A stretch of DNA of 64,000 nucleotides from Acidobacteriota bacterium (lineage in GTDB: Bacteria > Acidobacteriota > B3-B38 > Guanabaribacteriales > JAGGZT01): assembly GCA_021161905.1 (NCBI GenBank), contig JAGGZT010000004.1:73884-137883 (forward strand). The letters run 5' to 3'. This document shows, one piece after another, positions 1 to 37,251 of this stretch (position 1 is the first letter of the stretch; each line of letters starts with the position of its first letter). The notes beneath the pieces are model-generated. The model was not told where the DNA came from, made no database searches, and worked only from the letters and a program-made list of their open reading frames with translations. The translations under genes were made by a program, and so were the position numbers.

Positions 1-1281
1 AATCGGCCGGAGCGAGCTTCACCTTTCCTACCTCGATAAAATTGGGTATCCGATGCTCCTTGGAGAACACCTTCTGAAGCCGGTTTACCGCAGAGCAGAA
101 ATCGGAGCGCAAAACCCTCTCCCCAGTGGTAGTAATGCGAGCAGTTGGTCCCTCAAATATGGGGGTTAATTTTACCCTGTTGGGTATTTTCCCCTCCTTT
201 TCATAAGAGGCGAAGAAGTTAACCAGAACGGAAAACACCTCGCCGGGAGAAAGGGAATAGCCATCCATAACAACAAAAGAGATGTTATCCACCACGGAAC
301 GGGCAAGAAGAAGTACTGAAGAGGGGGGATAGGAGGCTTCAGGAGCAAGATCGCGATAGAGATGAAGGAGTTCACTGCCTGAAACCGATCTTACCCCGGG
401 AAGGGAAAGGAGAAATTTGGTATATTCATCGAGATGCCTAAAGCTTAGCTCTATCTCCTCTTTTGAACGGAGAGGCGGTTTCACCCATTTACCAGGTGGG
501 GTATTCTTCCCCTCCTTGAAGTTAAGCCTATCCCAATAGGTCTTGGTAACGAACTCCAGAGGATGAGAATAGGTGCTTATCACTCCGCCACCCCGTTTCC
601 TTAGAAGCGACCAAGCCCGTTTTGCCTTTTCTTCTGCCCTTTTTAAATCATCCTCAGTAGCAAGGGCATGGAGTTTTATCACCGTGCTCCTCATTCGGTA
701 GATATTGAGTACGCCTAAATACCAGAAGGGCTGATTATCTATCCCTATGTGATCCCCCTCATCGAGGTAAAGCTTTATCCCCCACTCCCTGAGGACAGGG
801 TAAACCTGCGGTGCCCAAGCGGAGCCAGGTTGTCCATAACAGATGGGGACTCGTCCAAATACCCTCCTTACCGCCAGCTCCCCCTTCTCCTCGCGCCGTT
901 TAAACTCAGCGACGCCTTCAGCAAACCCCTTTCCCTTCAGATACTCTCCTATAGTGGGATGTATCGAATGATTGTAGCTATGGAAGCCAACTTCATGGAA
1001 AGCGAGGGCGGAGATGACTTCGGACAACCCCTTTTTCTCTATCTCCTCAGCCTTCATCCCTACCACCTTAAATACCGCTTTCACCCCATTCTTCCTCATA
1101 ATCTCCGCAATCCTTATCGCTGCCTCGTTGCTGGGATTCCCCGAGATATAATCCTCATAATCGAACCAGAAAACGACATAAACCGGAGGAGTATCCTTAT
1201 CCTTTGCGGTAGCAGGTGCTGAAAGGAGCAACCCAGGCAAAATAATGACGATGGAAACGAAAATGACCAAATATTTACGCA
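1..1281 (-). CDS. Secreted protein, 3' end cut by the window edge; tentatively polysaccharide-deacetylase-like (CE4/NodB-like)
   Basis: Minus-strand ATG at 1281-1279 with an AAGGAGA ribosome-binding site just upstream. N-terminus MRKYLVIFVSIVIILPGLLLSAPATAKDKDTPP is a signal peptide. Downstream motifs FWFDYEDY and GFHSYNHSIHP resemble NodB motifs. The ORF runs to position 1 with no stop, so it is partial. The family call is weak. Confidence 0.45.
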
Positions 1282-2642: not shown

Positions 2643-4655
2643 ATGCCAATAATCGATTCCAAAACAGGAAAGGTGGTAAAAAAACTATCTCCAGCTGAGC
2701 TCAAAGAGGCAGCCAATCTTATGCGCGCTTACACCTTGGTAGCGCTTGCCGCCGCTCGTTCGGGCCATTCCGGAGGAAGTCTTTCGGTTATGGACATTAT
2801 GGCTGCTCTCTATCTCAACAAGATGCGGATCGATCCCAAAAACCCCTATTGGGAAGATCGCGACAGACTCATCCTCTCTACGGGCCATAAGGCGCCAGCC
2901 ATCTATATGGCGATGGCGTTTGCCGGATATTTCGATCCGGAAGAGGTTATGACCCTAAGGAAGCTGGGGAGCCCCTTCCAGGGTCATCCCCATTGGAAGA
3001 AGCTTCCCGGAATGGAGGCTTCAACCGGCTCCCTGGGACAGGGGTTGAGCATTGCCATTGGTATCGCCCTGAGGGGTAAGTTGGATAATAAAGACTATCG
3101 GGTCTACTGCATTATGGGAGACGGCGAGCAACAGGAAGGGCAGATATGGGAAGCGATAATGGAGGCGGGACATTACAAGCTGGACAACCTAACCGCCATA
3201 GTGGACAAAAACCGGCTCCAGATAGATGGCTGGGTACGCGAAGTAATGGATATCGACCCCTTAGCGGACAAATATCGCTCCTTCGGCTGGGAGGTAATCG
3301 AGATCGATGGCCACAACATTGAGGAGATACTGGAGGCGCTGGATAAGGCAGAGGGGATAAAGGGTAAACCCACCGTGATCATCGCTCATACGATAAAGGG
3401 TAAAGGGGTCGACTTTATGGAAGACCGGGCGGGTTGGCATGGCAAAGCACCTACTGTAGAACAGATGAAGGAGGCACTCGCTCAACTCAAGGTGGATCTG
3501 CCGGTGGACAAACTCCTCGCCAAGGCTGAAGAATACCAGAAGAAGGTGGAGGAGAAACTCAACGCCAAGATGCCCAAGTTCAGCCGGAACTACTGGTGGA
3601 ACGAAGCGAACAATATGAAGGTGGATATGGAGCCCACCAGAATGGGCTTCGGCAAAGCGCTCGATGAAATCGGTGATGACGAACGGATCATTGCCCTCGG
3701 TTGTGATATTTCCGGTTCGATCAAGATAAGCGATTTTTACGCCAACCATCCGGAGAGGAAGAACCGTTTCCTCTCAATGGGGATCGCAGAACAGAGCGCT
3801 ACCGGAGTAGCTGCGGGGCTGGCTAAAGAAGGAAAAATCGCCGTATTCGGAACCTATGCCGTCTTTTCTGCGGGAAGGAACCTCGACCAGGTGCGTACGA
3901 CCGTTTGTTACGGCGATTTCAATGTGAAGATCGCTGGAGCCCACGGCGGGGTTTCCGTTGGTCCTGATGGGGCTACCCACCAGGCATTGGAGGACCTCTT
4001 CCAGATGACCGGCCTCCCAAATATGCGGGTAGTCGTCCCCTGTGATTCCATCGAGACGAAAAAGGCAACCAAATATATCATCCTCGATCTGGTGGGACCT
4101 GCATATGTCCGATTTGCCCGAGAGGCCACTCCGATAGTCACCACTGAAGAGACCCCCTTCGTCTTCGGTAAAGCAAATGTTATAAGGTTTCGAGAGGAGA
4201 AACCTCGATTCATCGATGCCTTCGAGACGAAGCTGGAATCGGAGTACACCTCAGAAAACGAAGACATAACCATCATCGCTTGCGGACCAATGGTACCCGA
4301 GGCGATGCGCGCTGCTTACATCCTGAAGAAGGAGCACGGGATAGAGACAAGGATAATAAACCTCCACACTCTGAAACCGATCGATGAAGAGGCGATTATC
4401 CGTGCTGCCCGTGATACCGGGGTCATCCTCACCGCTGAGGAACATCAAGTAGGAGGATTGGGAAACCGGGTGGCAGCGGTAGTGGTTCGTGCCCGGGAGC
4501 TCTATAAGAAGCCGATCTTGATGGATATGGTTGGAGTTGACGATCGCTTTGGCGAATCTGGCTATCCCTGGGAGCTAATAAAGGAATTTGGCCTCTCCGC
4601 TGAACACATCGCAGTAAAGGCAAAGGAGCTCTATGACATAAAGAAAAAGGGCTAA
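2643..4655 (+). CDS. tkt: Transketolase, full length (N-terminal TPP-binding and C-terminal halves fused)
   Basis: AAGGAGGGAG ribosome-binding site. Motifs SGHSGGSLSVMDIMAALY, STGHKAPAIY, GSPFQGHPHW, GSLGQGLSIAIG, IMGDGEQQEG and NRLQIDG follow the transketolase pattern. The C-terminal pyrimidine-binding and TKC-like region is present. Confidence 0.85.
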   Translation: MPIIDSKTGKVVKKLSPAELKEAANLMRAYTLVALAAARSGHSGGSLSVMDIMAALYLNKMRIDPKNPYWEDRDRLILSTGHKAPAIYMAMAFAGYFDPEEVMTLRKLGSPFQGHPHWKKLPGMEASTGSLGQGLSIAIGIALRGKLDNKDYRVYCIMGDGEQQEGQIWEAIMEAGHYKLDNLTAIVDKNRLQIDGWVREVMDIDPLADKYRSFGWEVIEIDGHNIEEILEALDKAEGIKGKPTVIIAHTIKGKGVDFMEDRAGWHGKAPTVEQMKEALAQLKVDLPVDKLLAKAEEYQKKVEEKLNAKMPKFSRNYWWNEANNMKVDMEPTRMGFGKALDEIGDDERIIALGCDISGSIKISDFYANHPERKNRFLSMGIAEQSATGVAAGLAKEGKIAVFGTYAVFSAGRNLDQVRTTVCYGDFNVKIAGAHGGVSVGPDGATHQALEDLFQMTGLPNMRVVVPCDSIETKKATKYIILDLVGPAYVRFAREATPIVTTEETPFVFGKANVIRFREEKPRFIDAFETKLESEYTSENEDITIIACGPMVPEAMRAAYILKKEHGIETRIINLHTLKPIDEEAIIRAARDTGVILTAEEHQVGGLGNRVAAVVVRARELYKKPILMDMVGVDDRFGESGYPWELIKEFGLSAEHIAVKAKELYDIKKKG

Positions 4656-4688: not shown

Positions 4689-4710
4689 AAGGGCGGGTTT
4701 TCCCGCCCTT
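4689..4710. terminator. Bidirectional rho-independent terminator between convergent tkt and the radical SAM gene
   Basis: Perfect hairpin AAGGGCGGG-TTTT-CCCGCCCTT flanked by an A-run on one side and a T-run on the other. Confidence 0.8.
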
Positions 4711-4730: not shown

Positions 4731-6365
4731 CTACCTTTCCTGCCTCTTTCTCCACTCCTCGAGTGGGATGGCGAATTCCCGTTCTACTCGTTCTCGATTG
4801 GTAGGACCTGAGTTGTAGCTGCAGAAGGGGTATATCTTGCCGTCAAGTGTGGAGTAATGGATAACACAACGACGAACCCTCTCCGTCTGGTAATTGTAAG
4901 CGTCCATAAAGTGCATCCCAGCAACGAACATATAGCTTATCCTATCTTTCCCCCATTTACCGCTTCTTCCTATCTTTTTATCGATCAACCCGTAGAGAGA
5001 TTCGATAAAGTCGAAGTAGGAGAGACCAGGTGGAGCATACTTCTCCCGATAATATTTCTTAAAGTTATGGTAAAAGAGAAGTTTTGCAGGAAGTTTAAGC
5101 CAAGAATGTTCCAGCCTCTCCGCCCGTTCATAGAGCTCGGTAAGGAACCCCTCGACATCAACGAACCTGGTAACTGGATAAACATTACCATCTTTGTCAA
5201 TGTAGATAAATGTTCCCAATCCACAGTGAGGATGGCAGGTAACATTCACCATTTTAGTCCCGGTAAGTGCCTTTATGAATTTGGGAAAAGGAGAGACGCA
5301 ACTCACTGGATACCAGTCGTCCTTGGTAGAGATAAGACCTGTTTGCTCCTCAATACAGCGCGCCATATCGGGAAGGGTAAACCGCATTTTCATCCGCTCA
5401 GTAGCATCTATCCTCCCGGTGAAGGTAACCGGCTGGGCACTGATCCCGGAGATCACATCTCGGTTCTCGATGGCATAAAGGAGGATAGGACCAACCTGAT
5501 GATCGTTAATCGTATTTACTATGGTGGGAACAAGAACTACCTTCATCCCCGCTTTGCGGAAGTTATCCACCACCTTATCCTTGATGGCGAAAAGCTTTCT
5601 CCCCCGCGTTTTCTCATAAACTGTGTCATCCACCCCATCAAACTGGAGGTAAATGGTATGAAGGCCTGCTTCCTTGCACCGAAGGGTAAAATCAAAATCA
5701 GCGAACTTCAAACCATTGGAGGCCACCTGGATATGAGTATAACCCAACTCTCTTGCTGCGGCTATTATCTCCACAAACTGGGGGTGAAGCGTTGGCTCGC
5801 CCCCGGCGAACTGAACCGCAGTGGCGGGATCTGGCTTCTCCTCGCGAGGACGTCTAAGCATCTCCAACACCTGATCGAAGGTGGGCTCCACCACGAAACC
5901 AGCAGCATTAGCATTGGCAAAGCAGATGGGACAACTGAGATTACACCGATTAGTGAGATCGATGTTGATCAAACAGCTGGTACTGGTATGAAGATTACAA
6001 AGACCACAGGAATAAGGGCAACCTTTGGTATTCTCGGTAAGGGGATTTTCAAACCCTTCCCCATCCATAAAGTGCCACCGCTCTGCCTTAAGATACAGGT
6101 CCACATCCGACCAGTAGAGGTCCTTGAAGTATCCATGCTCGGGGCAGGTCTTCTCCATCATCACTCTACCGTTTTCTTCGAACATACGCGCCGGAATCAC
6201 CTTCAAGCATTCAGGGCATAGCGATTCCACCGTTTTTGGCAAACCACGGGTGATCGGTTTTATAGGGGCGCCGGTACGAGTCTGGCGTATCTCCCTTTTC
6301 TCCTCTACCGCTGTCCCACCATTCCTCAGCGTTTTCCTCAAGTTAGAAAGTATCCCCATCTTCAC
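4731..6365 (-). CDS. Radical SAM enzyme with N-terminal zinc ribbon and an extra Cys cluster (Tes/tetraether-lipid-synthase-like architecture)
   Basis: 544 aa. N-terminal CPECLKV...CPEHG zinc ribbon, then CPYSCGLC, then the radical SAM CxxxCxxC motif in NRCNLSCPICFAN. FAGGEPTLHP is the glycine-rich SAM-binding motif. A ~250 aa C-terminal domain follows with few cysteines, so this is not a SPASM-type enzyme. Confidence 0.7.
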   Translation of the reverse strand: MKMGILSNLRKTLRNGGTAVEEKREIRQTRTGAPIKPITRGLPKTVESLCPECLKVIPARMFEENGRVMMEKTCPEHGYFKDLYWSDVDLYLKAERWHFMDGEGFENPLTENTKGCPYSCGLCNLHTSTSCLINIDLTNRCNLSCPICFANANAAGFVVEPTFDQVLEMLRRPREEKPDPATAVQFAGGEPTLHPQFVEIIAAARELGYTHIQVASNGLKFADFDFTLRCKEAGLHTIYLQFDGVDDTVYEKTRGRKLFAIKDKVVDNFRKAGMKVVLVPTIVNTINDHQVGPILLYAIENRDVISGISAQPVTFTGRIDATERMKMRFTLPDMARCIEEQTGLISTKDDWYPVSCVSPFPKFIKALTGTKMVNVTCHPHCGLGTFIYIDKDGNVYPVTRFVDVEGFLTELYERAERLEHSWLKLPAKLLFYHNFKKYYREKYAPPGLSYFDFIESLYGLIDKKIGRSGKWGKDRISYMFVAGMHFMDAYNYQTERVRRCVIHYSTLDGKIYPFCSYNSGPTNRERVEREFAIPLEEWRKRQER

Positions 6366-6563
6366 ACCCCCTTGAAAATCTTTTTAGAATATGCTCTCTT
6401 CTTTTTTGAGAAAAAAACTCTTCCTCCTTCCAATTTAGAACTTATTATACCACAATAACCCAGGGGAAAGACAAAATTTAAAAATTTTTTCCTTTTTATC
6501 TCCGCTATAATCTGATATAATTATTGTGAAATCTGATAATTAGGTGGGAGAAGGGGGTTCCTT

Positions 6564-7052
6564 ATGAAGAAAATAGCAATAGGGGTGAGTATCTTATTGG
6601 TAGCTTCACTTGCTTATGGTGGCGGTTTTTTGAAAGGTGGGATAATCGTTCATCCCGATGTGGGGGGAATCTCCGAACGATGGCTCATCTCCACAGGAAG
6701 TGACTATTACATCGGAGATATGGTGGCTTTGGGACTTGAGATCCAAACCGCCTACCATAGTTCGAATAACATCAGCTCCGTACCCCTAAATGGGTTCATC
6801 AACCTGAAGGTAAGACCCAACCTTTCTGGGGTAAAGCCGGTGGTAGGAGTAGGATTTGGCCTGATGAGCAATCTCCTTTGGGGAGATAATGTTGACCTAA
6901 CCTTCTCCAAAAACACAGGGATGCATCTCATCGGAGGACTTGAATTCGGAATGAGTCATGGACCCGCTTTTACTGTAGAGCTACAGGCACTCCGTTCATT
7001 CGCTACCGGCGCGAGCTTTACCTATGTTATCTTGGGAGGCGTGAGGTTTTAA
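6564..7052 (+). CDS. Small outer-membrane beta-barrel protein (OmpW/OmpA-like 8-strand barrel family)
   Basis: GGTGGGAGAAGGGGG ribosome-binding site. Signal peptide MKKIAIGVSILLVASLAYGG. Alternating hydrophobic beta-strand pattern and a C-terminal aromatic residue (...ILGGVRF). Confidence 0.6.
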   Translation: MKKIAIGVSILLVASLAYGGGFLKGGIIVHPDVGGISERWLISTGSDYYIGDMVALGLEIQTAYHSSNNISSVPLNGFINLKVRPNLSGVKPVVGVGFGLMSNLLWGDNVDLTFSKNTGMHLIGGLEFGMSHGPAFTVELQALRSFATGASFTYVILGGVRF

Positions 7053-9970: not shown

Positions 9971-10268
9971 AACGGGTCATCCGGGTGGAGTTCAAATTGA
10001 GACGCTTCACAAAAAGCTGGGATGGCTTAAACACAACCGAGTAGTGTGAGGGAATCGACTGTCTTTCCCCTGTTTGTGGATTCACCACCTCCCTTTCGTT
10101 CTTCCTTCTTATAAAAAAAACCCCAAAACTGGATATCTTAACCTTCTCCCCCCGTTTCAACCTCATAGCGATTAGGGAGAAAATAAGGTCCACCAGATTA
10201 AGCGCCTCTTTTTTTAAAAGCCCCCCATGCCTGTGATATATCACCTCAGCCAAATCCTTCTTTGTCAT
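9960..10268 (-). CDS. HU/IHF-family DNA-binding protein (integration host factor-like)
   Basis: MTKKDLAEVIY...RLKRGEKVKISSFGVFFIRRKNEREVVNPQTGERQSIP matches the IHF/HU arm motif (GFGxF...R.aRNP.TGe). It overlaps the MerR gene by 11 nt. Confidence 0.85.
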   Translation of the reverse strand: MTKKDLAEVIYHRHGGLLKKEALNLVDLIFSLIAMRLKRGEKVKISSFGVFFIRRKNEREVVNPQTGERQSIPSHYSVVFKPSQLFVKRLNLNSTRMTRYDK

Positions 10269-12550
10269 CGGAACAACTCCACATCCCTCTCCTTAAGCAC
10301 CAGAGGAAGGGTTATCTCGTCACCTGACTTTAACAATATCACCTCGTCCCTCCTCCCCACCCCCTCCTTAACCGCGCTAAGCTGATAAGCTCCTGGAGAG
10401 ACCCCTTTTATAAGGTAATCTCCCTCCTCTGAGGAGAGGGTGGTAGCAACGAGCTTCCCCTCCCGATCGACCAGCTTCACGGTAGCCCCAGAAACAAAGG
10501 TGCCCCTGATAGTCAACACCTTTCCTCTTACTATACCACCTGCTGAACCAAATCTTTTAAAGGGAACCTCGATAAATTTATCCATCCCAGCAAAAACTTC
10601 CACCTCCCTCGTCTCCTCAGTATATCCATCCTTTAAAAAGGAAAGGGAGAATCCCCCTTCGGGAAGCTTCAGGAATTGGAATTTCCCCTCATTGTCGGTG
10701 AAGGTAGCGTCCTCATAGGAAAGGTCCCCTCTACCTTTCAGTATCACAATCACCTCGCCCACTCCTTCCTTGGTCTCATCGTCCAAAACCGCTCCTCGCA
10801 AAACCCCATAGCCGGGAGCGAGCTCGAGCTGTTTCGAAATAATTTTGGAAGCACCAGGAGTGAAGACCGCCCGCGAACGGAAAACCCGCTTATAGCCCTC
10901 TTTTGACGCCTGAAGTATATAATTTCTTCCCCGCTTCAAATCGGAAAACTCAAATTCTCCGTTAGCACCCGTCTTGGTGGTCCTCACTTCCTTGGTGCTC
11001 TCATCTATTAGTTCGATGGTGGCATCGGGAAGGGGGAATTGATTAGTGGTATCGTAAAGTTCCCCAACCACTTTAAATACCGGCTTCTCCAGGATGAGCT
11101 CCACCGAAACTTCCTCTCCCGGACTAATAGCCAGGATTTTCTTCGACTCGCTTCCCGAAAGATAGCCTGAGGCGCGAGCGGCTATAGTGTATGTCCCTGG
11201 GCGAACCTCATCGAAAGAAAAAGAGCCATCAGGAGTACTCCTTACCTCCTTTATCACATAACCCACACCATCGAGGATGTCAACTCGCACCTCGGGAAGA
11301 GGCTCACCAAAATCCGATAAAACCCTTCCTTTGACCTTACCCGGAGCCTTTATCTCAGTTTCAGCAGTAATATCCCCTCTCCCCTTTGAACCAGAAGACC
11401 TCGGCGAAAGCTTTACCGTAGGAGTTTCATCTCCTAAGAGGGCTTCTTCCTCTTCCGCTTCCTCTAAAGAAGTAGAATCGATAGGTTGAGGCACCGCTAA
11501 CGGCTTTCTCCTTGCGGAGTAAAACCTTAAGACCCAGTAAGTGGCAAGACCAGCAGCACCAGCCAACCCTATGATTAAGAGGATACCCATTAGCTTGCCA
11601 AATATCAGAGACTTAACCCTAAGCTCGAAGACAACTACCTTGAACCCCCCATTAAGCGCCTCCTCAGGTAGAGCTATCTTCCTTCCCGTCTCATCCCAAC
11701 AGGGAGAGCCCGGATTGGTATTGCTTACCTCCGATATCTCCCGCACAATGTTGCCCTCAGCATCCATAACATATAAACTCACTAACGCCCATTCCTTCTT
11801 GGCACAATAGGCTATAAGATTACCATCGGGAGAATAGGAGAAGGAGATAAGACCCGGGATCTTTCTCACCAGCCTGATGTCACTACCGTTAAAATTCATC
11901 TGGTAGATCCCAAGGTCGTTGTAAAGACCAGAGATAAAAGCTATTCTACCCAATCTCCTGGGACAACTCGGTGAGGAGGCATAGACTAAATCCGTAAGCT
12001 GGTTAAGCTCGCTTCCATCCCGGTTCACTATAAAAATCTGCCGATCCTTAACAAATACCAATCGCCTCCCTTCTGGGGTCCAGGCTGGCTCGGTTCCTCC
12101 TTTAGTGTTAGGAAGAGGAAACCTCTCTCCATCAGGCAGGGAAAAGATAACCAAATCGCTATCCTCATTTAAGAAACGAACGCAAACGATAAACTTACCA
12201 TCAGGCGAGAACCTGGGGAAGCTATATCTGACCGGAACCTCTACCTTTCTCCTTCTCCGGAAAAGGACCACCTTCTCCTCATTTGAGTTGGTAAGCCGGC
12301 GAAGGGTATCACCCTTCAGTTCATAGATGAATATATCCTTCCCATTATCAAAGGCGACCGACTTGCCATCGGGAGACCAATCGATATGGGCTATAAGGGA
12401 AATACCCTTGAGCTTCTTGGCGGGAATGAGGTCCATTTGCTCAGATGGCTTCAACCTTTCCAGATCCTTCTTGGAAAGCCCCTGAAACCCAAAGAGGAAA
12501 CACTCAAAGCCAAGAAAAAGGAAGAAGATTGCGAAAGTCTTACCTTTCAC
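10265..12550 (-). CDS. Membrane protein: signal peptide, TolB-like WD40/PD40 beta-propeller, a single TM helix, an acidic linker, and four tandem CarboxypepD_reg-like (transthyretin-fold) domains
   Basis: 761 aa. N-terminal signal sequence. PD40-like repeats (DWSPDGKSVAF, FSPDGKFIV, SYSPDGNLIAY). TM LMGILLIIGLAGAAGLATYWVLRFY. Then four ~85 aa repeats of type GRVLSDFGEPLPEVRVDIL...TPDGSFSFDEVRPGTYTIAARASGY. Overlaps the IHF-like gene by 4 nt. Confidence 0.7.
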   Translation of the reverse strand: MKGKTFAIFFLFLGFECFLFGFQGLSKKDLERLKPSEQMDLIPAKKLKGISLIAHIDWSPDGKSVAFDNGKDIFIYELKGDTLRRLTNSNEEKVVLFRRRRKVEVPVRYSFPRFSPDGKFIVCVRFLNEDSDLVIFSLPDGERFPLPNTKGGTEPAWTPEGRRLVFVKDRQIFIVNRDGSELNQLTDLVYASSPSCPRRLGRIAFISGLYNDLGIYQMNFNGSDIRLVRKIPGLISFSYSPDGNLIAYCAKKEWALVSLYVMDAEGNIVREISEVSNTNPGSPCWDETGRKIALPEEALNGGFKVVVFELRVKSLIFGKLMGILLIIGLAGAAGLATYWVLRFYSARRKPLAVPQPIDSTSLEEAEEEEALLGDETPTVKLSPRSSGSKGRGDITAETEIKAPGKVKGRVLSDFGEPLPEVRVDILDGVGYVIKEVRSTPDGSFSFDEVRPGTYTIAARASGYLSGSESKKILAISPGEEVSVELILEKPVFKVVGELYDTTNQFPLPDATIELIDESTKEVRTTKTGANGEFEFSDLKRGRNYILQASKEGYKRVFRSRAVFTPGASKIISKQLELAPGYGVLRGAVLDDETKEGVGEVIVILKGRGDLSYEDATFTDNEGKFQFLKLPEGGFSLSFLKDGYTEETREVEVFAGMDKFIEVPFKRFGSAGGIVRGKVLTIRGTFVSGATVKLVDREGKLVATTLSSEEGDYLIKGVSPGAYQLSAVKEGVGRRDEVILLKSGDEITLPLVLKERDVELFR

Positions 12551-15104: not shown

Positions 15105-16052
15105 ATGGAGGAAAAACCTTATTTCTATCACGAACTAACCGAAGAAGGGGAAAAAATACTCCTCAGAAAAAGGAGAAAAAAGATATGGTTGAACCTCCTT
15201 CTATTTCTTCTCACCTTGGGGACAACCCTCTTCGTGGGAATACTAAACTATCTCGCCTTCGAGGAGGTGGACTTAGGAAGGAGTGGGTTGATAGGAAACC
15301 TCCTCAGCCATCCAGAAGTTATCCTTAAAGGTCTTTATTTTGCGGGAACTATTATGGCGATTCTCCTCGCCCATGAATCGGGACACTACTTAGCCTGTCG
15401 TTATTACGGGATAGATGCCACCCTTCCCTACTTCATCCCCGCTCCTACTATCGTCGGGACCTTCGGCGCCTTTATAAAGATCCGATCCCCCATCGTAAAC
15501 AGACGAGCGCTTTTTGATATTGGGATAGCTGGTCCCCTGTCTGGCTTCCTCCTCGCCCTTCCTACCCTATACTATGGCCTTCGGCTCTCCCGAGTGATCC
15601 CCATAGCTGTTACCCATCAGGGACTGTACTTCGAGATCGGTGAACCATTGCTCTTCAAGATAATGGAACATCTATTCCTTCCCCCTATTCCTGACGGTTT
15701 CGACCTTCTACTCCATCCGATGGCTTTTGCCGGCTGGTTTGGGTGTTTGGTTACCGCTTACAATCTTTTTCCGGTGAGCCAGCTCGATGGAGGACATATC
15801 GCCTACTCCATCTTTCGCAAGGCTTATTCAAAGATATCCGGTCTCGTTTTCTTGGCTATTCTCAGTTTGGGGATAGTATATCGTTTTTACGGCTGGTTCT
15901 TTTGGGCGGTTCTCATCCTCATTCTCGGATTTCGCCATCCACCAACCCTGGATGACGATATAGAACTGGGAAGGAACAGATTAATCCTTGGCTTTATCGC
16001 CCTCGCCATCTTTGTCCTCACCTTTACCCCGGTGCCGATTAAACTTCGCTAA
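15105..16052 (+). CDS. Site-2 protease family (M50) membrane metalloprotease
   Basis: HESGHYLACRYYG (HExxH) sits in a TM helix. A second motif region FFWAVLILILGFRHPPTLDD follows. Multiple TM segments. Confidence 0.75.
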   Translation: MEEKPYFYHELTEEGEKILLRKRRKKIWLNLLLFLLTLGTTLFVGILNYLAFEEVDLGRSGLIGNLLSHPEVILKGLYFAGTIMAILLAHESGHYLACRYYGIDATLPYFIPAPTIVGTFGAFIKIRSPIVNRRALFDIGIAGPLSGFLLALPTLYYGLRLSRVIPIAVTHQGLYFEIGEPLLFKIMEHLFLPPIPDGFDLLLHPMAFAGWFGCLVTAYNLFPVSQLDGGHIAYSIFRKAYSKISGLVFLAILSLGIVYRFYGWFFWAVLILILGFRHPPTLDDDIELGRNRLILGFIALAIFVLTFTPVPIKLR

Positions 16053-17173
16053 TTCTTAAGGAGTTTTTTAGCAAACCAACCCTCGACCACCTCTATCGCC
16101 CCTTCAGGGCATACCTCCTGACAGCAAAAACAGCTGATGCATTTACGGTAATCAATGACTATCCTTCCCTCCTCCTCTCGTGCCGCCTTCGGGGGGCAAA
16201 CAGAGACACACTGACTGCAAAGCACACATTGTTCCTCGTTCACTACTGGTCGAGGAGAGAGGTTTTTTCTAAAAAGGCGGGTAAAAAGCGAAAGGAGCCC
16301 GCTTCTTACAGATGAGACCCGAGGCATCTTAAAGTCGGAGAGAAGGAAACCAGAAGGATCATCCCCTACAAGCTCCAAATCTTTTGGGTCAAATAGATGC
16401 CTCCTCTTGGCTTCAAATAGGTGAGGTAGAGTATCAGGGGAGACCCCTAAGAGAGAGGTGATGGCAAAATCTATTGCCAACGGATCCTTCCCCACCATCA
16501 CGAAGCCAAGTTTCCGGGGAGTTCCCCCACTTCCTGGACCATCCCCCTCTAAACCAACAACGCCATCAACAATAGTAAGCGCAGGCTTTATCGCCAAGTA
16601 GAGATCAAGTAGCATCAAGGCGAAAAAATGGGGGTTATTTCCTGCCCTCAGATGCCACTGCGCCTTCCTCCTACCCACTATACAGCCAAAGAGGTTCTTC
16701 ACCGCCAAAGTAAGACCCATCAGGTTGTGGGTCTTCACCTTGGGAAGGTTTATTATCACATCGGCTTCTACCACCTCCTTTGCTATTTCTATCCTCTTGA
16801 AGGTAGCGGAAGGGGGCGGAGTAATGGAAACCGATTGAGAAAAGGGAACAAGCTCCGCCCCCGTCTTATCCGCTACTTCGGTAATCCCTGCCACCTCGGC
16901 TACCTTCGCTAAATCGCTCAGCGCCGGACTGTCGCCTATCAAGGGCTCCCCTCCAGCTCGAATTACCATTCGCGCTACCGCTTCTACCACCGCAGGATGA
17001 GTGGTGATCGCCTTCTCCTTAGGATTTGGAGAAAGGAGGTTCGGTTTGAGAAGAACCCTGCTTCCTCGGGGGATGAATCGCTCGATCCCTCCAATCAAGG
17101 AAAGGGCTTTTTCTATCCCTTCCTCTACCTCTCCATAAGAGGAGACCCGAGAAAGTGCAACCTTCTCCTTCAT
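16049..17173 (-). CDS. DUF362 domain protein with C-terminal 2x[4Fe-4S] ferredoxin domain
   Basis: The N-terminal 300 aa match the DUF362 pattern (VLLKPNLLSP...). The C-terminus carries CVLCSQCVSVCPP and CISCFCCQEVCPEGA cluster motifs. Confidence 0.65.
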   Translation of the reverse strand: MKEKVALSRVSSYGEVEEGIEKALSLIGGIERFIPRGSRVLLKPNLLSPNPKEKAITTHPAVVEAVARMVIRAGGEPLIGDSPALSDLAKVAEVAGITEVADKTGAELVPFSQSVSITPPPSATFKRIEIAKEVVEADVIINLPKVKTHNLMGLTLAVKNLFGCIVGRRKAQWHLRAGNNPHFFALMLLDLYLAIKPALTIVDGVVGLEGDGPGSGGTPRKLGFVMVGKDPLAIDFAITSLLGVSPDTLPHLFEAKRRHLFDPKDLELVGDDPSGFLLSDFKMPRVSSVRSGLLSLFTRLFRKNLSPRPVVNEEQCVLCSQCVSVCPPKAAREEEGRIVIDYRKCISCFCCQEVCPEGAIEVVEGWFAKKLLKN

Positions 17174-31034: not shown

Positions 31035-32885
31035 CTACAGCCTACCCGCCTTTTTCAGCTCCTCGATGGCGAAATCGAGCCCCAACTCGGAGAGCTTTGC
31101 TTCAGTGGGTATCCCGTTCTTATCCCAGCCGCGGAGTTTATAATAATCGTCGAGAAGAGCCTCAACCATCTCTTTGGTCAACTTGGCTCCCTTGGTGGGA
31201 CCATCGGGTATCGGATCCTCGATGAATCTCGCCGGAGGATAATCCCAGCTCCTCCCGAAGTCAGGATACTCCCGCACCCAGAAGCAGCGGGTAAGGTTCC
31301 ACACCCGCTCCGAGGTCTTGAGGTAGCCCTCAAGGTCGTAGTCGAAACCGGTGATGGCGTTTATGAGTGGAGGATAGGTCTCAAGCGGAAGATTCACCTC
31401 CACCCATTGGAGACGGCAGGCACCGAGCATATCAAAGAGGGGGCGGATGTGCTGCAATTCGATAACCTTAGCTGCCTTACCTTCAACCTTATCCCTTCCC
31501 ACCTCGATGTCATAGGTTATCGCCCAGGCACGATTATGATGGGCACCGATATCGGTGGTCATATAGGCAAGAGCCATCGCTGGCGCATGGTGGAACTCAT
31601 AACCCGACACCTCAAGCCCCTTCACCTGGATAGCGAACTTCTCACTTCCACCACCGAACTCCTTCGCCGCCTCCCTCACCCCTTTAGCGAGAATGGCGCC
31701 GATACCCTCCTTCTTCGCTATCTTCTCGATCAGGGCGTAAACTCCCTCTGGATCGCCAAAGGAAAGTTTGATCCCATCGGTATCCTTCTCGGTGATTATC
31801 CCTCGCTCAAAGCACTCGATGGCAAAGGCGCAGATATTCCCTGCTGAGATGCTGTCCAGACCAAGCTCATCAACCAAGTAGTTAGCATAAGCCACATCCT
31901 TTATATTGGTGAAACCGACATTTCCCCCGATGAGGGCGATCGTCTCGTACTCCGGTCCCTCCACATAAAATTCCTTACCCTTATAAGTAAAATGAGAATA
32001 CTTACCACAGGGAGAAGGACAGCTATGACAACCCTTATCTATCTTCACTATCTCCTCCCGCATAACGGGACCAGAGAGGTTTTTATACTCAGCAAGCCAA
32101 CCACTTGAGAAGTTCCGCACCGGGAACGCCCCGATCTCGTTCACCCACTCCACCACACCGGGGGTGCCGTATTTAATCCAGGTCTCGGTGGCAGGGGATT
32201 CCGCTATAATACGGAACATCTCCTTCGCCTGGCGGACATACCCTTCGAAATCGTGAACCGGAACACCCTTTGTCCCCTTCACCGCGATCGCCTTCACCTT
32301 CTTCGAGCCCATCACCGCACCAACACCGGTTCTTCCTGCCTGACGTCCGAAATCATGGGAGATACAGGAGATGGGAATAAGGTTCTCACCGGCAGGTCCG
32401 ATCACCGCTATCTGATAGTCCTCCCCTAAATCGTCCTTCAGCATCTTCTCCGCGGTGATCGCCCCTTTACCCCAATACTTGCTTCCATCTATCAGCTCAA
32501 CCTCATCATCGGTTATGACCACAACGGTCGGCTTATCCGCCACCCCCTCGAGGATCACCATATCGTAACCGGCGAACTTCATCTCCGCAGAGAGATGTCC
32601 GCCCACATTGGAATCGCCATAACTCCCGGTAGCAGGCGATTTGGCAGCAAAGGTGGTCTTACCACCGCCGGGGGCAAACATCCCGGAGAGGATCCCTGAG
32701 ACCATAAGGAGTTTATTCTCCGGACCAAGGGGATCTGCCCCCTTAGGCACCTCCCGGAAGAGATAGTAAGCAGCAAAACCCCTCCCCCCAAGATAACTCC
32801 TCGCCACCTCAGGGTCAGTAGGGGTTTTTTCTATCTTACCCGTGGTGAGGTTTATCCTTAAAATAGTCCCACCGTATCCGTTCAT
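31035..32885 (-). CDS. aor: Aldehyde:ferredoxin oxidoreductase family (tungsten/molybdenum-pterin, 4Fe-4S)
   Basis: Start at MNGYGG, with AGGAGGAGAAAG immediately upstream. The longer track ORF adds MRRRK. AOR_N motifs (GGTILRINLTTGKI, YLGGRGFA) and C-terminal AOR domain with Cys ligands. Confidence 0.9.
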   Translation of the reverse strand: MNGYGGTILRINLTTGKIEKTPTDPEVARSYLGGRGFAAYYLFREVPKGADPLGPENKLLMVSGILSGMFAPGGGKTTFAAKSPATGSYGDSNVGGHLSAEMKFAGYDMVILEGVADKPTVVVITDDEVELIDGSKYWGKGAITAEKMLKDDLGEDYQIAVIGPAGENLIPISCISHDFGRQAGRTGVGAVMGSKKVKAIAVKGTKGVPVHDFEGYVRQAKEMFRIIAESPATETWIKYGTPGVVEWVNEIGAFPVRNFSSGWLAEYKNLSGPVMREEIVKIDKGCHSCPSPCGKYSHFTYKGKEFYVEGPEYETIALIGGNVGFTNIKDVAYANYLVDELGLDSISAGNICAFAIECFERGIITEKDTDGIKLSFGDPEGVYALIEKIAKKEGIGAILAKGVREAAKEFGGGSEKFAIQVKGLEVSGYEFHHAPAMALAYMTTDIGAHHNRAWAITYDIEVGRDKVEGKAAKVIELQHIRPLFDMLGACRLQWVEVNLPLETYPPLINAITGFDYDLEGYLKTSERVWNLTRCFWVREYPDFGRSWDYPPARFIEDPIPDGPTKGAKLTKEMVEALLDDYYKLRGWDKNGIPTEAKLSELGLDFAIEELKKAGRL

Positions 32886-32896
32886 CTTTCTCCTCC

Positions 32897-33289
32897 TCAT
32901 TTTCTTTCGGTTAACGCCTTAGTGGGGCAGATGGCAACGCACTCGCCGCAGTAGTCGCACTTGAACATATACTCATACTCCTGATGGGGAACGATCACTC
33001 CCGTAGGACAGGCATCGGCACAAGCCCAGCAGAGGATGCATTTTTCCGGATCGACCTTATAGATTCCATTATCGTTGTAGATGGCATCGACAGGGCAGGC
33101 TTCAGCGCACTTCCCGCACTGGATGCAGATGGCTATCTTGTACTTTCCCGGAGCAGGGAATTCACCCTTCACCCAGATCGCCGACTTCTTGGGATTCGTC
33201 TCCTTAAAATGAAATATGGAACAAACCGTCTGACAGAGGAGACACCCACAACAGCGCTCCTCATCGACCTTTATACTTTTTATAGGCAT
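32897..33289 (-). CDS. Ferredoxin with multiple [4Fe-4S] motifs (likely electron partner of AOR)
   Basis: 130 aa with four Cys clusters: CCGCLLCQTVC, CIQCGKCAEACP, CILCWACADACP, CDYCGECVAICP. Confidence 0.85.
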   Translation of the reverse strand: MPIKSIKVDEERCCGCLLCQTVCSIFHFKETNPKKSAIWVKGEFPAPGKYKIAICIQCGKCAEACPVDAIYNDNGIYKVDPEKCILCWACADACPTGVIVPHQEYEYMFKCDYCGECVAICPTKALTERK

Positions 33290-33315: not shown

Positions 33316-35436
33316 TTATTTGATCACTGCCTTCCTGACACCAATATTATAGGAGGAATCCTCCACCTTAACCACTATTATATGCTCCCCTGGAGCAAGG
33401 GAGGGAAGCCGAAGTTTGAACGACTCCTTTCTGGAATCAAGCATACCATCCACCGAGGATAATCTTTCCCATTTCCCCGCGTCGATGGAATACCAAGCGT
33501 CCTTGATGAAGCTCAACTCATCGGAGGCGGAAAAGGACACCACTGCCCGCCCCTTTCCCCTGATCACCTGAAGCACAGACAACTTGGGTGGGGTATTATC
33601 GACCACGAAGAAATCGGATATCTTCTCCGTAGAAAGGGGGTGAGCCGGATTCGTCACCACATCTGAAACTACCACCTTTAGCTGGTATCTTCCATCGGGA
33701 ACCGATTCCGTATCCCAAGAATAAAAAGGCCGGGAAAGATCCTTTATTAGGGGCATCCAATTTCTCTCTCCTTCACCTCGAACGAAAAGACTGTAGCGAA
33801 GCTCATCACCATTCGGATCCACTCCCTTGAAGAGGAAGGTGAGCATCCCCTTGCGATATAGCATCTTTCCTAAATCCTCCCCAGCTGATGGCTTCCTCCC
33901 AAGTTTCAACGGTTTTTCCAGATGGGATTGGTATCCCGGAGGAAGAAGAGCGAGGAGCTCATTGGTGTACTGGGCTTCCCGCTTGAAATAGATACCCGGT
34001 GGATAAACCACTATCTTGTTTACTTTCGGGGGAAGGTTCTGGGGGAGATAGAAGAGGGACACCGAATGCAACCTCGGGGTGAGCTTTGGGTTTTCACTAA
34101 CCAGCTCCGCCCGAAACTGGATGAACCGGGCGGGCGGACTTTTCACCTCTGAACCTTCTGGATTCAAATAGGGCGGAGACCAGGGGCTCCAGGTAGCGTC
34201 CGGTTTCTCTGAATTTCCACTCCTGGTAAAGAGCCTGATATAGGTACCGGTCGGAGTCCTCCCGGAAAAGGATATCCTGCCGAAGCGGGAGATGGTTTTC
34301 GTATCCTTGACAGGGGAAAGATAGATCCCCTTAGCCCGGAACTTGGGCTCAAGCTTCAATAGTTCAGAGGAATTGCTCGTACCTATAAAAAGGGTGTTCC
34401 CCGTCGGAGCGAGCGCGGTTATATCCTTCTGGGAAACCTTCATTATAAGAGAGCTCTTCCCCTCCTCATCAATGAGAAGAAGAGTCCCTTTACTCCCCGT
34501 TCCTACAAAAACCCCCCTCCCCTTTATATAGGCGAGGGAAAATACCCGCTCCTTCTTGAGCTTCAACACCTCCTCCACCTTTTTCCCATCTGGTGAGATG
34601 CGGTAAACAACCGAGGCAAACTCGTCCTTCACCTCCTGCTTTGTTCCCTTCTCCTCTCCTTCGCTGGAACTCGGGGAAGCCTTTTTCCCTCCCTTTACCG
34701 CGGCAGCATATATCATCCCTTTATCATCGACGGCGAAAGCCTTCACCTCATAAAACGGGGTATCCCACAGAACCGAGGCTTTATTCTTCCCCTCCACCTT
34801 CAGTACCAGCCCGCTACCCGCAGTACCAGCAAGGAGAAAGCCGGCAGGATGCCAGAAGAGAGCGGTGATGTGGTCCTCCTTGGTCTCATAATGGAGATCG
34901 CCTTTACCCGCAGGGTCTACCTTGAAAATGCTACCGCTATCACCGGTTCCCGCATATAGGTTTCCCGCTGGATCAAAGGCAAGAGACCAGATATACCGCT
35001 TCCTCGGATTGAAGAAGGAAACAGCACTTCCCGAAGGGCTCACCCGATATATCTTCCCCCTGGGGGAGGAAGCGACGAAAAGGCTTCCCGATTTAGAAAA
35101 AGCGAGAGCATAGATCTCCATCTCAGGAGCCTTGAAGAAAAGGGAGCCCTTGCCCTGGGGAGAGACCCGAAATACCTTCCCTTCGCTACCCGTCCCCAAA
35201 TAAAGCTCGCCACCAGCGCCTACAGCAAGCGCCCAGATACGAGGGGCATCCGGCTTGAACAAAGAGGAAGAAAGGGGGGCGATAACTATCTCCCCCTCAC
35301 CGGTTATCGAGCTCGTCTTCGGCTCGCCAGAGAGAAAGCCCTTTCCCTTCACCTGCCACACCTTGACCGTGGAAGAAAGAAGAAAAGGGACAATCAGAAA
35401 TAAGAAAAAAGCAAGCGATAAGATTCTCCGTCTCAT
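33316..35436 (-). CDS. Secreted beta-propeller repeat protein (Reg_prop / NHL-like ~40-aa repeats) with a C-terminal Ig-like region
   Basis: Signal peptide. At least 7 repeats of type G.LY.GT...G.IY.V.P.G. C-terminal beta-sandwich-like region. Confidence 0.55.
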   Translation of the reverse strand: MRRRILSLAFFLFLIVPFLLSSTVKVWQVKGKGFLSGEPKTSSITGEGEIVIAPLSSSLFKPDAPRIWALAVGAGGELYLGTGSEGKVFRVSPQGKGSLFFKAPEMEIYALAFSKSGSLFVASSPRGKIYRVSPSGSAVSFFNPRKRYIWSLAFDPAGNLYAGTGDSGSIFKVDPAGKGDLHYETKEDHITALFWHPAGFLLAGTAGSGLVLKVEGKNKASVLWDTPFYEVKAFAVDDKGMIYAAAVKGGKKASPSSSEGEEKGTKQEVKDEFASVVYRISPDGKKVEEVLKLKKERVFSLAYIKGRGVFVGTGSKGTLLLIDEEGKSSLIMKVSQKDITALAPTGNTLFIGTSNSSELLKLEPKFRAKGIYLSPVKDTKTISRFGRISFSGRTPTGTYIRLFTRSGNSEKPDATWSPWSPPYLNPEGSEVKSPPARFIQFRAELVSENPKLTPRLHSVSLFYLPQNLPPKVNKIVVYPPGIYFKREAQYTNELLALLPPGYQSHLEKPLKLGRKPSAGEDLGKMLYRKGMLTFLFKGVDPNGDELRYSLFVRGEGERNWMPLIKDLSRPFYSWDTESVPDGRYQLKVVVSDVVTNPAHPLSTEKISDFFVVDNTPPKLSVLQVIRGKGRAVVSFSASDELSFIKDAWYSIDAGKWERLSSVDGMLDSRKESFKLRLPSLAPGEHIIVVKVEDSSYNIGVRKAVIK

Positions 35437-35454: not shown

Positions 35455-37251
35455 CTACTCCGTTATTCTAAGGGTCAATTCCCTTTTTCCTATGATCTTA
35501 TATTCTGTCTTCAACCTCTCCTCGTCGAGGAAGACAGCATCGATCTTCTTGAACCCGCCTTCCCCACCGGCATCACCCATCACCGCGAGGATCGATGGGG
35601 GAAGAGCAGGTAGATACTTGCCCTTAAGCAAACCGCTCTCCCCCTTGCGGGAAAAGAGGGCGTAGACGATGTTATTCCGCCGCATATTGCTAAGCAAGCG
35701 GATCAGGTCCTCGACACTCCGCGGCTTTATACCTCCCTTCAACTTCTCCCGCTCGAAGGCAGAGACAGAGGAAGCATCGCCCACCACTATCTTGACCTTG
35801 CCCGGGCTCATCTTCAGGGGAACCCTCAGATGAAACCTTCTCACCACAGGCTTCCCCCTCCTCGGCTTCAACCTCACCGACAGGGTTAACGGCTCACCCG
35901 GTTTTGCCCTCGCCTTATCGAGCCAGGCATCGATGAGGCTCGCCTCCCTAAGCTCATCGGAGTAATCGATGGTGAGCCTTATCCCCCTTATATCTACCTT
36001 TCTGAACTCGTTGTTATAGAGATAATGGACTATAGCTCCAACGATGGTGCTCGCCTCCTCAGATGCCGAAGTTCCGGAAAAAAGGTTATCTATCCTCACC
36101 GAAGGAAGGTCGCCAAGCTCGATCCTCCCCGATAGATGGATACTCATATCACCGGATCCCTTCTCCACCGATTGGATGATGTTCGCCAGGGTAAGCTGGA
36201 CCAAGAAGGGAGCGAAGACCGAATGAAGGGCAACATTGTAATGGAAAACCTCCTCTCCCTTCTTTGAACGGAGTTTGACCTCAATGGGGAGAAGGAGAGG
36301 TTTCCTTCCGAGTATGCCCAAAGTACCGGCGCTCCTATCCTGAACCACTGCTCCCACCTCTTTAGTAGGCACAGCAAGCTTGGAGGATTCAGCGAGGGAA
36401 GGAAGAATGGTAACCACTTTTGCCTTGGTGAGAGGAAGCGAGGTAGCTCCAAGGAGGAAAAATGGATGTCCGAAGGCGAGTACCCTATCACCTCGACGAT
36501 AGGTGAGGGTACCGGTAGCGGTAAGGTTTACATCCCCGGACACGAGCTGGACGCCAATCGCAGAGCCAGGGGCAAGCTCACTCCCATCATCTTCCCCGCT
36601 CAGCCCGCCTCCGAACTGAGTGGCAATAAAACCGTATTTTGCAAATACCGATTGATATCGACGGATAAGTGCTGGCGAGAACCCAGAGAAAACAAGGGGT
36701 GTCTCGATCGGCTTGAAACTTAACCCCGAAGCAAGCTCTCCCTTCAAGGGGAGGAAATTAAAGGAAGGAAGAACCGTCTTCTTCTCAGGCTTAAGAGGCA
36801 AGGGGAGCGGTTTCACAAAGCCTAAAAAATCACTTTGAAGAAATCCACCCTTTATTTCCTCTTTATCCTTCTCATCTATCTTCAACATATATTCTATGGG
36901 GGTGATCCCCACTATCGGTTCCTTAATAAAGGTTCCAATGCGGAGGGAAACGGCACCCACCAATTTCCCATCTATATAAACCGGGGACCCGCTCATCCCA
37001 GCCATAACCCCCGCAGCCTTCACCTTATCTCCGGAAAGGCGAGCTAAGATGAGGTCCATCTTGGGTCCAAGAGCATTTCTCAACACACCGAGGATCTCCA
37101 CATTGAACTCCTCTATCTTCTCTCCCTGAAAGACGGTTTTCCCTACCCCTTTCATCCCCACCTTTACCTGAGATAGGGGGAGGATTGGCTCCTCCGCGTA
37201 AGAGAGAAGGGAAATGGCAACAGCTAAGAAAAAAAGCGTTATCTTCCTCAT
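35455..37251 (-). CDS. Secreted peptidase S55 (SpoIVB-like) domain protein
   Basis: Signal peptide. GVMAGMSGSPVYIDGKLVGAVS resembles the SpoIVB catalytic-Ser region (GMSGSP). The C-terminal ~250 aa are unassigned. Family call from motif memory only. Confidence 0.45.
   Translation of the reverse strand: MRKITLFFLAVAISLLSYAEEPILPLSQVKVGMKGVGKTVFQGEKIEEFNVEILGVLRNALGPKMDLILARLSGDKVKAAGVMAGMSGSPVYIDGKLVGAVSLRIGTFIKEPIVGITPIEYMLKIDEKDKEEIKGGFLQSDFLGFVKPLPLPLKPEKKTVLPSFNFLPLKGELASGLSFKPIETPLVFSGFSPALIRRYQSVFAKYGFIATQFGGGLSGEDDGSELAPGSAIGVQLVSGDVNLTATGTLTYRRGDRVLAFGHPFFLLGATSLPLTKAKVVTILPSLAESSKLAVPTKEVGAVVQDRSAGTLGILGRKPLLLPIEVKLRSKKGEEVFHYNVALHSVFAPFLVQLTLANIIQSVEKGSGDMSIHLSGRIELGDLPSVRIDNLFSGTSASEEASTIVGAIVHYLYNNEFRKVDIRGIRLTIDYSDELREASLIDAWLDKARAKPGEPLTLSVRLKPRRGKPVVRRFHLRVPLKMSPGKVKIVVGDASSVSAFEREKLKGGIKPRSVEDLIRLLSNMRRNNIVYALFSRKGESGLLKGKYLPALPPSILAVMGDAGGEGGFKKIDAVFLDEERLKTEYKIIGKRELTLRITE

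Follow-up and report, generated by a model that had tools for sequence, protein, structure and literature searches.

The 64,000-nucleotide stretch analyzed here (positions 73,884 to 137,883 of contig JAGGZT010000004.1; hereafter the window) carries on its minus strand an intact open reading frame (ORF), 4731–6365, whose product is almost certainly a member of the Tes/GDGT-MAS family of radical S-adenosylmethionine (SAM) enzymes. Its four-cofactor architecture is the same as that of the solved archaeal enzyme, comprising a rubredoxin-like Fe site and three [4Fe-4S] clusters: one N-terminal ([4Fe-4S]N), one that cleaves SAM, and one C-terminal ([4Fe-4S]C) bearing a labile Met. By its sequence, the protein is a member of the bacterial Tes clade and not of archaeal Tes sensu stricto. 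The reading that we favor, and regard as reasonably probable, is that this bacterial-clade enzyme couples the non-isoprenoid glycerolipids of its host into membrane-spanning lipids.

Family assignment by profile and structure

Single-residue positions such as C48 are numbered on the 542-aa form of the protein. Among the NCBIfam models, the best score, 579.7 bits where 450 are required, belonged to the equivalog NF045702 (tetraether lipid synthase Tes), with residues 46–534 matching positions 2–485 of the 486 in the profile. The second-best different family was the selenoprotein TrsS (NF045646), which reached 347.3 bits, below its cutoff of 490, and only over residues 45–357. The models for MoaA, viperin, PqqE, SkfB, and the SPASM maturases gave at most 63 bits against cutoffs of 230–650 (the SPASM maturases at most 52 against 300–650), and matched the radical SAM core only. 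When the PDB was searched by sequence, the sole strong match was the GDGT-MAS/Tes of Methanocaldococcus jannaschii (MJ0619; 7TOL and 7TOM), with an E-value of 1.5e-147 for 7TOL_A, residues 42–541 aligning with chain residues 21–514 at a global identity of 46%. The fold was in agreement with this match. An AlphaFold model computed from a 27-sequence alignment (pLDDT 80, pTM 0.85) was compared by Foldseek with 7TOL, giving an E-value of 7.5e-55 over 501 aligned columns (TMq 0.81, TMt 0.89); for 7TOL and 7TOM together TMq was 0.81–0.82 and TMt 0.89. MoaA, which ranked next among the folds, scored only 0.35.

Membership in another radical SAM subfamily (a SPASM/twitch maturase, MoaA, HemW, a tRNA modifier, TrsS, or the pterin methyltransferase “HMPTM”) draws some support from annotation, as certain homologues are listed at JGI as “7,8-dihydro-6-hydroxymethylpterin dimethyltransferase” and the N-terminal Pfam domain bears the name Zn_ribbon_HMPTM. 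“HMPTM” is a name that had been proposed earlier for MJ0619. TrsS also shares with our protein an N-terminal zinc ribbon, an auxiliary cluster, and the radical SAM core, which account for its 347 bits; however, it stays below its cutoff and leaves the C-terminal domain unmatched. Together with the low MoaA and SPASM scores, and with the absence of SPASM and twitch families from the Pfam matches at E ≤ 0.1, this makes another subfamily very improbable; by the tests that sequence and fold allow, the alternative is refuted. The original prediction, made from the letters of the window alone, had called a Tes-like radical SAM enzyme and had suggested a profile comparison, naming a best match to a SPASM maturase, HemW, or a tRNA-modifying enzyme as the result that would speak against it. 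In the comparison with Tes and the other NCBIfam radical SAM models, Tes ranked first by a wide margin, and the full-length match to 7TOL in both sequence and fold upholds the call.

Cofactor ligands

The cofactors of MJ0619 have been described from its structure (PMC9433317). The rubredoxin-like Fe is bound by C9X2C12X20C33X2H36 and [4Fe-4S]N by C73, C77, C80, and a His, followed by a CX3CX2C radical SAM cluster and by [4Fe-4S]C, which has a labile Met439; a conserved Tyr459 is described as well. Ligands were paired by alignment to MJ0619/7TOL, and invariance was judged in an alignment of 27 homologues. The window protein carries SLCPEC...KTCPEHG, GCPYSCGLCNLH, CPYSCGLC, and CNLSCPIC, so that the zinc ribbon and the two cysteine motifs reported in the original prediction were all recovered, in agreement with the Pfam matches (Table 1).

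The rubredoxin-like CX2C...CX2H site consists of C48, C51, C72, and H75, corresponding to C9, C12, C33, and H36 of MJ0619 and invariant in the 27 homologues. Equally invariant are C114, C118, C121, and H124, which align with C73, C77, C80, and H83. The CX3CX2C motif, C139-N-L-S-C143-P-I-C146 (bases 5922–5945), corresponds to C98/C102/C105. The SAM-binding GGE (G186, G187, and E188) and the residues Q309 and R316, equivalent to the SAM-loop Q268 and R275 whose roles are set out in PMC9433317, also occupy invariant columns.

Toward the C terminus, C379, C498, and C513 align with C338, C455, and C470, Met482 with the labile Met439, and Tyr502 with Tyr459. Because these three are the only C-terminal cysteines conserved with MJ0619, we infer that they are the Cys ligands of the C-terminal [4Fe-4S] cluster; the passage of PMC9433317 concerned names only Met439 as a ligand of [4Fe-4S]C. 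The C-terminal domain had been described in the original prediction as lacking SPASM cysteines, which is correct, but it does hold the site of a third cluster. The four cofactors have 14 metal ligands, all of which, like the labile Met, are conserved with respect to MJ0619, and they are invariant or nearly so in the 27 homologues. The likeness to the archaeal enzyme therefore extends over full-length collinearity, the four-domain fold, all the cofactor ligands, the labile Met, the conserved Tyr, and the SAM-loop Gln and Arg.

A separate bacterial clade

Relatives of the protein were found in at least 599 genomes by a genome scan, and an exhaustive HMMER search at E ≤ 1e-30 returned 614 clusters at 50% identity. 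The phylogeny that had been suggested with the original prediction was computed by neighbor joining (Kimura distances, 79 sequences, 506 columns, 100 bootstraps). It separated, with 100% bootstrap support, 35 bacterial sequences, the window protein, and one contig from a “Woesearchaeota” metagenome-assembled genome (MAG) from 41 archaeal sequences and one Bacteroides-labelled contig. The window protein lies deep in the bacterial half, its own position being supported at 41–48%, and falls outside the group formed by the Terriglobia and Bryobacterales (bootstrap 100). Hidden Markov models (HMMs) of the two clades, built without the test sequences, gave the same division: the window protein scored 796 bits with the bacterial model as against 703 with the archaeal one, whereas MJ0619 scored 601 and 740, respectively.

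In contrast to MJ0619, the window protein has approximately 40 extra N-terminal residues containing a motif restricted to bacteria. Most bacterial sequences, and none of the archaeal ones, have this motif, QPxTTYxGxPIxP, ahead of KGLPK; the window protein has the version IRQTRTGAPIKPITRGLPK, and T27, G30, and P32 of the extension are invariant or nearly so among the 27 homologues. The alignment of 79 homologues contains six positions that cleanly distinguish the two clades, and at five of these (I306, S307, G382, A480, and Y510) the window protein has the bacterial state. S307, which is N in archaeal sequences, stands two residues before the SAM-loop Gln, while G382, A480, and Y510 are each two to three residues from a ligand of the C-terminal cluster; in total, four of the six positions are at most three residues from a SAM-loop residue or a C-terminal-cluster ligand. 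Small clade-specific indels of one or two residues occur at window-protein residues 98, ~220, ~271, and 461–462. It is plausible, judging from their position in the sequence, that the diagnostic residues near the SAM loop and the C-terminal cluster are handles for a different substrate. The passages of the Tes literature consulted contain no description of the bacterial-specific N-terminal motif or of these residues. Against these differences, 74 alignment columns that are at least 90% conserved are identical in both clades, including all the ligands and the labile Met.

The Acidobacteriota homologues of the Terriglobia and Bryobacterales share the clade, the architecture, and the N-terminal extension with the window protein, at 50–56% identity. 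Unlike them, the window protein is deep-branching, its nearest relative beyond its own species cluster being 58% identical.

Two sequences in the tree were found on the side opposite to their label. The Tes from a contig binned as Bacteroides salyersiae (CAVGUW010000016.1, match 10001–11518) nests in the Methanomethylophilaceae and scores 796 bits with the archaeal profile against 647 with the bacterial one; the contig is probably a mis-binned gut archaeal contig. Conversely, the sequence on the 3.9-kb “Woesearchaeota” contig (match 2035–3564) groups with Latescibacterota in the bacterial clade (bootstrap 90), with 743 bits on the bacterial profile against 639 on the archaeal, a placement to be explained either by mis-binning or by bacteria-to-archaea transfer.

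The host and the nativeness of the gene

The proteins encoded in the window are bacterial, among them Der/EngA, SurE, Apt, HU, a TolB-like protein, ExbB, TonB, CsgG, a SpoIID/SPOR protein, MiaA, HflX, ArgS, QueC, QueE, and an ECF sigma factor with its anti-sigma factor, and the MAG itself carries the Acidobacteriota label at NCBI. All the named matches of ArgS were from Acidobacteriota (Aminicenantia, Polarisedimenticolia, and Terriglobia), at only 52–59% identity, and this distance suggests a deep lineage within or near the Acidobacteriota. These observations bear out the bacterial host assumed in the original prediction. That the host is also an anaerobe, as had been stated there, is plausible but not proven: a tungsten-type aldehyde:ferredoxin oxidoreductase (31035–32900, minus strand), a DUF362 protein with a ferredoxin-like C terminus (16049–17173, minus strand), and the presence of three radical SAM genes in the window all fit with it.

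The gene itself has a native composition. Its GC content (0.486), GC content at third codon positions (0.545), and codon-usage distance (0.155) are each within one standard deviation of the 39 window genes. In addition, the order apt, small outer-membrane-like ORF, tes, tkt, and aminotransferase is repeated in three further assemblies from other samples (ENA and Logan). Taken together, native composition and repeated order exclude chimerism and recent transfer. That a contig is chimeric or mis-binned and so carries an archaeal gene would not be without precedent, since mis-binning is known in this family from the Bacteroides salyersiae-labelled Tes mentioned above. Here, however, bacterial genes lie on both sides within the contig, the same gene order recurs in assemblies from different samples, and the protein itself has the HMM score of the bacterial clade, so that an artefact of assembly or binning is refuted and its probability negligible.

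Proposed function

By analogy with the archaeal enzyme, tail-to-tail coupling of lipids is likely to be the chemistry of the protein. The steps would be, by homology (PMC9433317; PMC13459092), the following. The radical SAM cluster would split SAM into a 5'-deoxyadenosyl radical, which would take a hydrogen from the methyl group at the end of a lipid chain held in a hydrophobic channel. Met482 would then leave [4Fe-4S]C, and the carbon radical would be trapped on a cluster sulfide, this cluster being the proposed site of the S–C intermediate in the archaeal enzyme (PMC9433317). A second SAM would activate a second chain, and its attack on the cluster-bound carbon would create the Csp3–Csp3 bond joining the two tails.

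Regarding the substrate, the non-isoprenoid part of this reading has about an even chance on its own; unlike that of the archaeal enzyme, the substrate is probably not an isoprenoid diether. The most likely substrates would be the iso-branched glycerolipids of the host itself, ester- or ether-linked, because both the host and the neighboring genes are bacterial and none of the genes visible is an archaeal lipid gene. An iso-branched fatty chain has the same terminal structure as a phytanyl chain (PMC8941075), and the pocket of archaeal Tes binds ester-linked phosphatidic acid (PMC9433317), which together would make such a lipid the most economical choice. The products would be membrane-spanning lipids of the iso-diabolic acid type or of the branched glycerol dialkyl glycerol tetraether (brGDGT) type.

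A role of this kind has been proposed before for bacterial homologues. Along with the discovery of Tes in 2022, 456 homologues in bacterial genomes were reported, the best of them acidobacterial, and put forward as brGDGT synthases (PMC8941075). The same role has been proposed for the homologues of Acidobacteriota, those of the Terriglobia and Bryobacterales as well as those of Ca. Solibacter usitatus and Ca. Koribacter versatilis (PMC8941075; PMC10087280), S. usitatus being a brGDGT maker with Tes homologues (PMC10087280), and in MAGs from the Black Sea, Tes homologues were found in 17 of the 97 Acidobacteriota (PMC11868695). Unlike the cultured brGDGT producers, which are aerobes or microaerophiles, the host of the window protein looks anaerobic.

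Several points weigh against the coupling of non-isoprenoid lipids by this protein. No lipid gene lies within approximately 10 kb on either side of the Tes gene in the window and the sister assemblies, and in a search for conserved neighborhoods covering 30 bacterial and 23 archaeal Tes loci, no neighbor family was common to more than three of the 30 bacterial loci; at the 29 bacterial loci other than that of the window, the gene was likewise found standing alone, with no lipid genes beside it. The host lineage is uncultured, and the view of its genome spans 64 kb. In the literature, the activity of bacterial Tes homologues “has not been experimentally confirmed” (PMC11868695), a 2026 review treats them as bioinformatic only (PMC13459092), and they are present in only three of the 14 acidobacteria that make iso-diabolic acid (PMC13159169). 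Finally, the confirmed bacterial enzyme for tail coupling, Mss, belongs to another family (PMC13159169). Mss of Thermotoga maritima and Thermoanaerobacter ethanolicus is likewise a radical SAM enzyme that joins two lipid tails, and it is the only bacterial enzyme for which such coupling is described as shown experimentally (PMC13159169; PMC13459092); however, it is only remotely related to Tes, and a BLAST search with either of the two does not recover the other (PMC13159169). According to this description, the window protein is of the Tes family and not an Mss.

The bacterium might instead make archaeal-type isoprenoid diethers of its own, from which the enzyme would produce isoprenoid GDGTs or macrocyclic archaeol, as in the mixed-membrane proposals for some bacteria of the FCB group. 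By its title, one study reportedly ascribes the potential for archaeal ether lipids to FCB-group bacteria. An identity of 46–53% to archaeal Tes, the retention of Tyr502 and every ligand, and a score above the NF045702 cutoff are in accordance with such a substrate. On the other hand, none of the genes for glycerol-1-phosphate dehydrogenase (G1PDH), geranylgeranylglyceryl phosphate synthase (GGGPS), digeranylgeranylglyceryl phosphate synthase (DGGGPS), or geranylgeranyl reductase is present in the window or in approximately 7.4 kb added beyond it by a sister assembly, where only genes for an M24 peptidase, a formate/nitrite transporter, and RND/MacB efflux were found. Placement in a bacterial clade that is set apart from archaeal Tes by diagnostic residues beside the C-terminal cluster also argues against it, as do the reports that isoprenoid GDGT production is demonstrated in no bacterium (PMC8941075) and that GDGT production is strongly deleterious in E. 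coli (PMC12042123). We consider an isoprenoid substrate unlikely.

Unlikely as well, but less so, is a new function for the whole bacterial clade, in which the Tes scaffold and its radical chemistry would serve another hydrophobic substrate or another transformation, such as cross-linking or macrocyclization within one lipid, or action on a metabolite that is not part of the membrane. The fully supported, deep split between the clades would be expected under this explanation, and so would the clade-specific S307 beside the SAM loop, the residues G382, A480, and Y510 beside the [4Fe-4S]C ligands, the clade indels, and the conserved bacterial-only N-terminal extension. The poor correlation between Tes homologues and iso-diabolic acid among cultured acidobacteria (PMC13159169) points in the same direction, and the related TrsS family has the N-terminal two-thirds in common with the window protein. 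Nevertheless, the 74 columns common to both clades include the ligands and the labile Met, the AlphaFold model retains the full-length fold with the C-terminal lipid-pocket domain, and archaeal Tes itself already yields both macrocyclic and tetraether products (PMC8941075; PMC9433317).

Gene start, annotation, and transcription signals

The ORF gives 544 aa if begun at GTG 6365, as in the original prediction, which did not state the strand. The likely start of the gene is ATG 6359, two codons further on, giving 542 aa. It is preferred because the Shine-Dalgarno-like AGGGGG (Table 1) is 7 nt before the ATG and only 1 nt before the GTG. The 542-aa form was also called by gene callers in four other assemblies, and an exact look-up found this form on record and returned no match for the 544-aa form, which supports the ATG. 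The public record, MCD6450870.1, is labelled only “radical SAM protein” and begins at L42, with 503 aa; that start removes the N-terminal motif conserved among the bacterial-clade homologues.

Table 1. Features of the Tes-family gene and of its flanking regions (coordinates of the window)
Feature	Position	Strand	Details
Bidirectional intrinsic terminator	4689..4710	both	Shared with convergent tkt; hairpin AAGGGCGGG-AAAA-CCCGCCCTT, T/A runs on either side
Tes/GDGT-MAS-family radical SAM gene	4731..6359	minus	542 aa from ATG 6359; stop codon 4731–4733
C-terminal auxiliary-cluster and lipid-pocket domain (predicted)	4821..5225	minus	C379, C498, C513, Met482, Tyr502
Radical SAM core	5481..5957	minus	Pfam PF04055, residues 137–295, E 2.4e-22
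N-terminal auxiliary [4Fe-4S] site	5988..6020	minus	C114-P-Y-S-C118-G-L-C121-N-L-H124
Rubredoxin-like/zinc-ribbon domain	6108..6239	minus	Pfam PF23545 (Zn_ribbon_HMPTM), residues 43–86, E 1.8e-22
Bacterial-clade N-terminal extension	6240..6293	minus	Residues ~23–40, IRQTRTGAPIKPITRGLP; pLDDT 58–78 in AlphaFold model
Shine-Dalgarno-like AGGGGG	6367..6372	minus	Read from sequence; 7 nt before ATG 6359, 1 nt before GTG
Possible promoter	6444..6474	minus	TTGTCT, 19-nt spacer, TGG-TATAAT (extended -10); read by eye; weak evidence

The gene converges with tkt (transketolase, 2643–4655, plus strand) and diverges from a small outer-membrane-like ORF (6564–7052, plus strand). It follows from this layout that it is monocistronic, and both features had been correctly described in the original prediction. 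The statement that it is flanked by terminators and promoters holds in part. The terminator shared with tkt is a strong hairpin with a 9-bp stem, seven GC pairs, and a T-run. The support for a promoter is weak: the extended -10 element TGGTATAAT (6452–6444, minus strand) was read by eye, whereas a consensus promoter scanner gave no minus-strand promoter upstream of the Tes gene, its total hits not exceeding the shuffled expectation.

Other genes in the window

The divergent ORF at 6564–7052 encodes 162 aa with a signal peptide (MKKIAIGVSILLVASLAYG) and a beta-strand-type sequence ending in ...GGVRF, resembling a small outer-membrane beta-barrel. It had no Pfam or NCBIfam match. It is kept beside tes in the sister assemblies and is not found in other bacterial Tes loci.

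Two genes more distant from tes could be related to lipids. The first, at 42914–44362 (minus strand; 37 kb from tes), encodes a B12-binding radical SAM protein of 482 aa, which, by its sequence, could in principle be a lipid methylase. Its best NCBIfam models were the Sden_1168 P-methyltransferase, with 100 bits (cutoff 575), and TIGR04072 (lipid biosynthesis B12-binding/radical SAM), with 81 (cutoff 360). As a lipid methylase partner of Tes it was set aside, all its NCBIfam scores being far below the cutoffs and the gene being so distant. The second, at 51816–52538 (plus strand; approximately 46 kb from tes), encodes a PgsA-like CDP-alcohol phosphatidyltransferase (TIGR00560, 79.6 bits, cutoff 109) and is the sole phospholipid head-group gene in the window.

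Elsewhere in the window, the gene at 45959–48673 (plus strand) encodes a fusion protein of 904 aa, in which a Ser/Thr protein kinase domain is joined to an FGE-sulfatase/SUMF1-like domain at the C terminus. Two adjacent ORFs on the minus strand, 33316–35436 and 35455–37251 (706 and 598 aa), had no Pfam match at E ≤ 1e-8; the former is kept in the sister assemblies, where it is annotated as hypothetical. The 157-aa ORF at 749–1222 (plus strand) is probably spurious, as the sister assemblies call an opposite-strand 504-aa gene that overruns the left end of the window.

Implications

The brGDGTs underlie widely used proxies of past temperature and pH, while their producers and the enzyme that joins their chains are unsettled. 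The candidates for this enzyme are Mss, which has experimental support, and the bacterial Tes homologues, which have none. As bacterial Tes homologues were already known, the gene described here is one among hundreds to thousands of catalogued homologues. Because so many are known, the host is uncultured, and the gene context is uninformative, it makes the question no more testable than the homologues of the cultured Solibacter usitatus do. It does add an example from a deep-branching and likely anaerobic acidobacterial lineage, together with a corrected start and annotation and the features specific to the clade. As a clean and intact member of the bacterial clade, it could serve as a test sequence for expression.

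That a deep-branching and probably anaerobic lineage of Acidobacteriota makes lipids of the iso-diabolic or brGDGT type by means of a stand-alone Tes-clade enzyme, rather than by Mss, is a tentative proposal to which we give less credence than to the coupling reading as such. If it is true, there would be an anaerobic acidobacterial source of brGDGTs in anoxic settings, and the bacterial Tes clade would constitute a second, independent route to bacterial monolayer lipids. In that case, S307, G382, A480, and Y510, together with the N-terminal extension, would be candidates for the tuning of the enzyme to non-isoprenoid chains.

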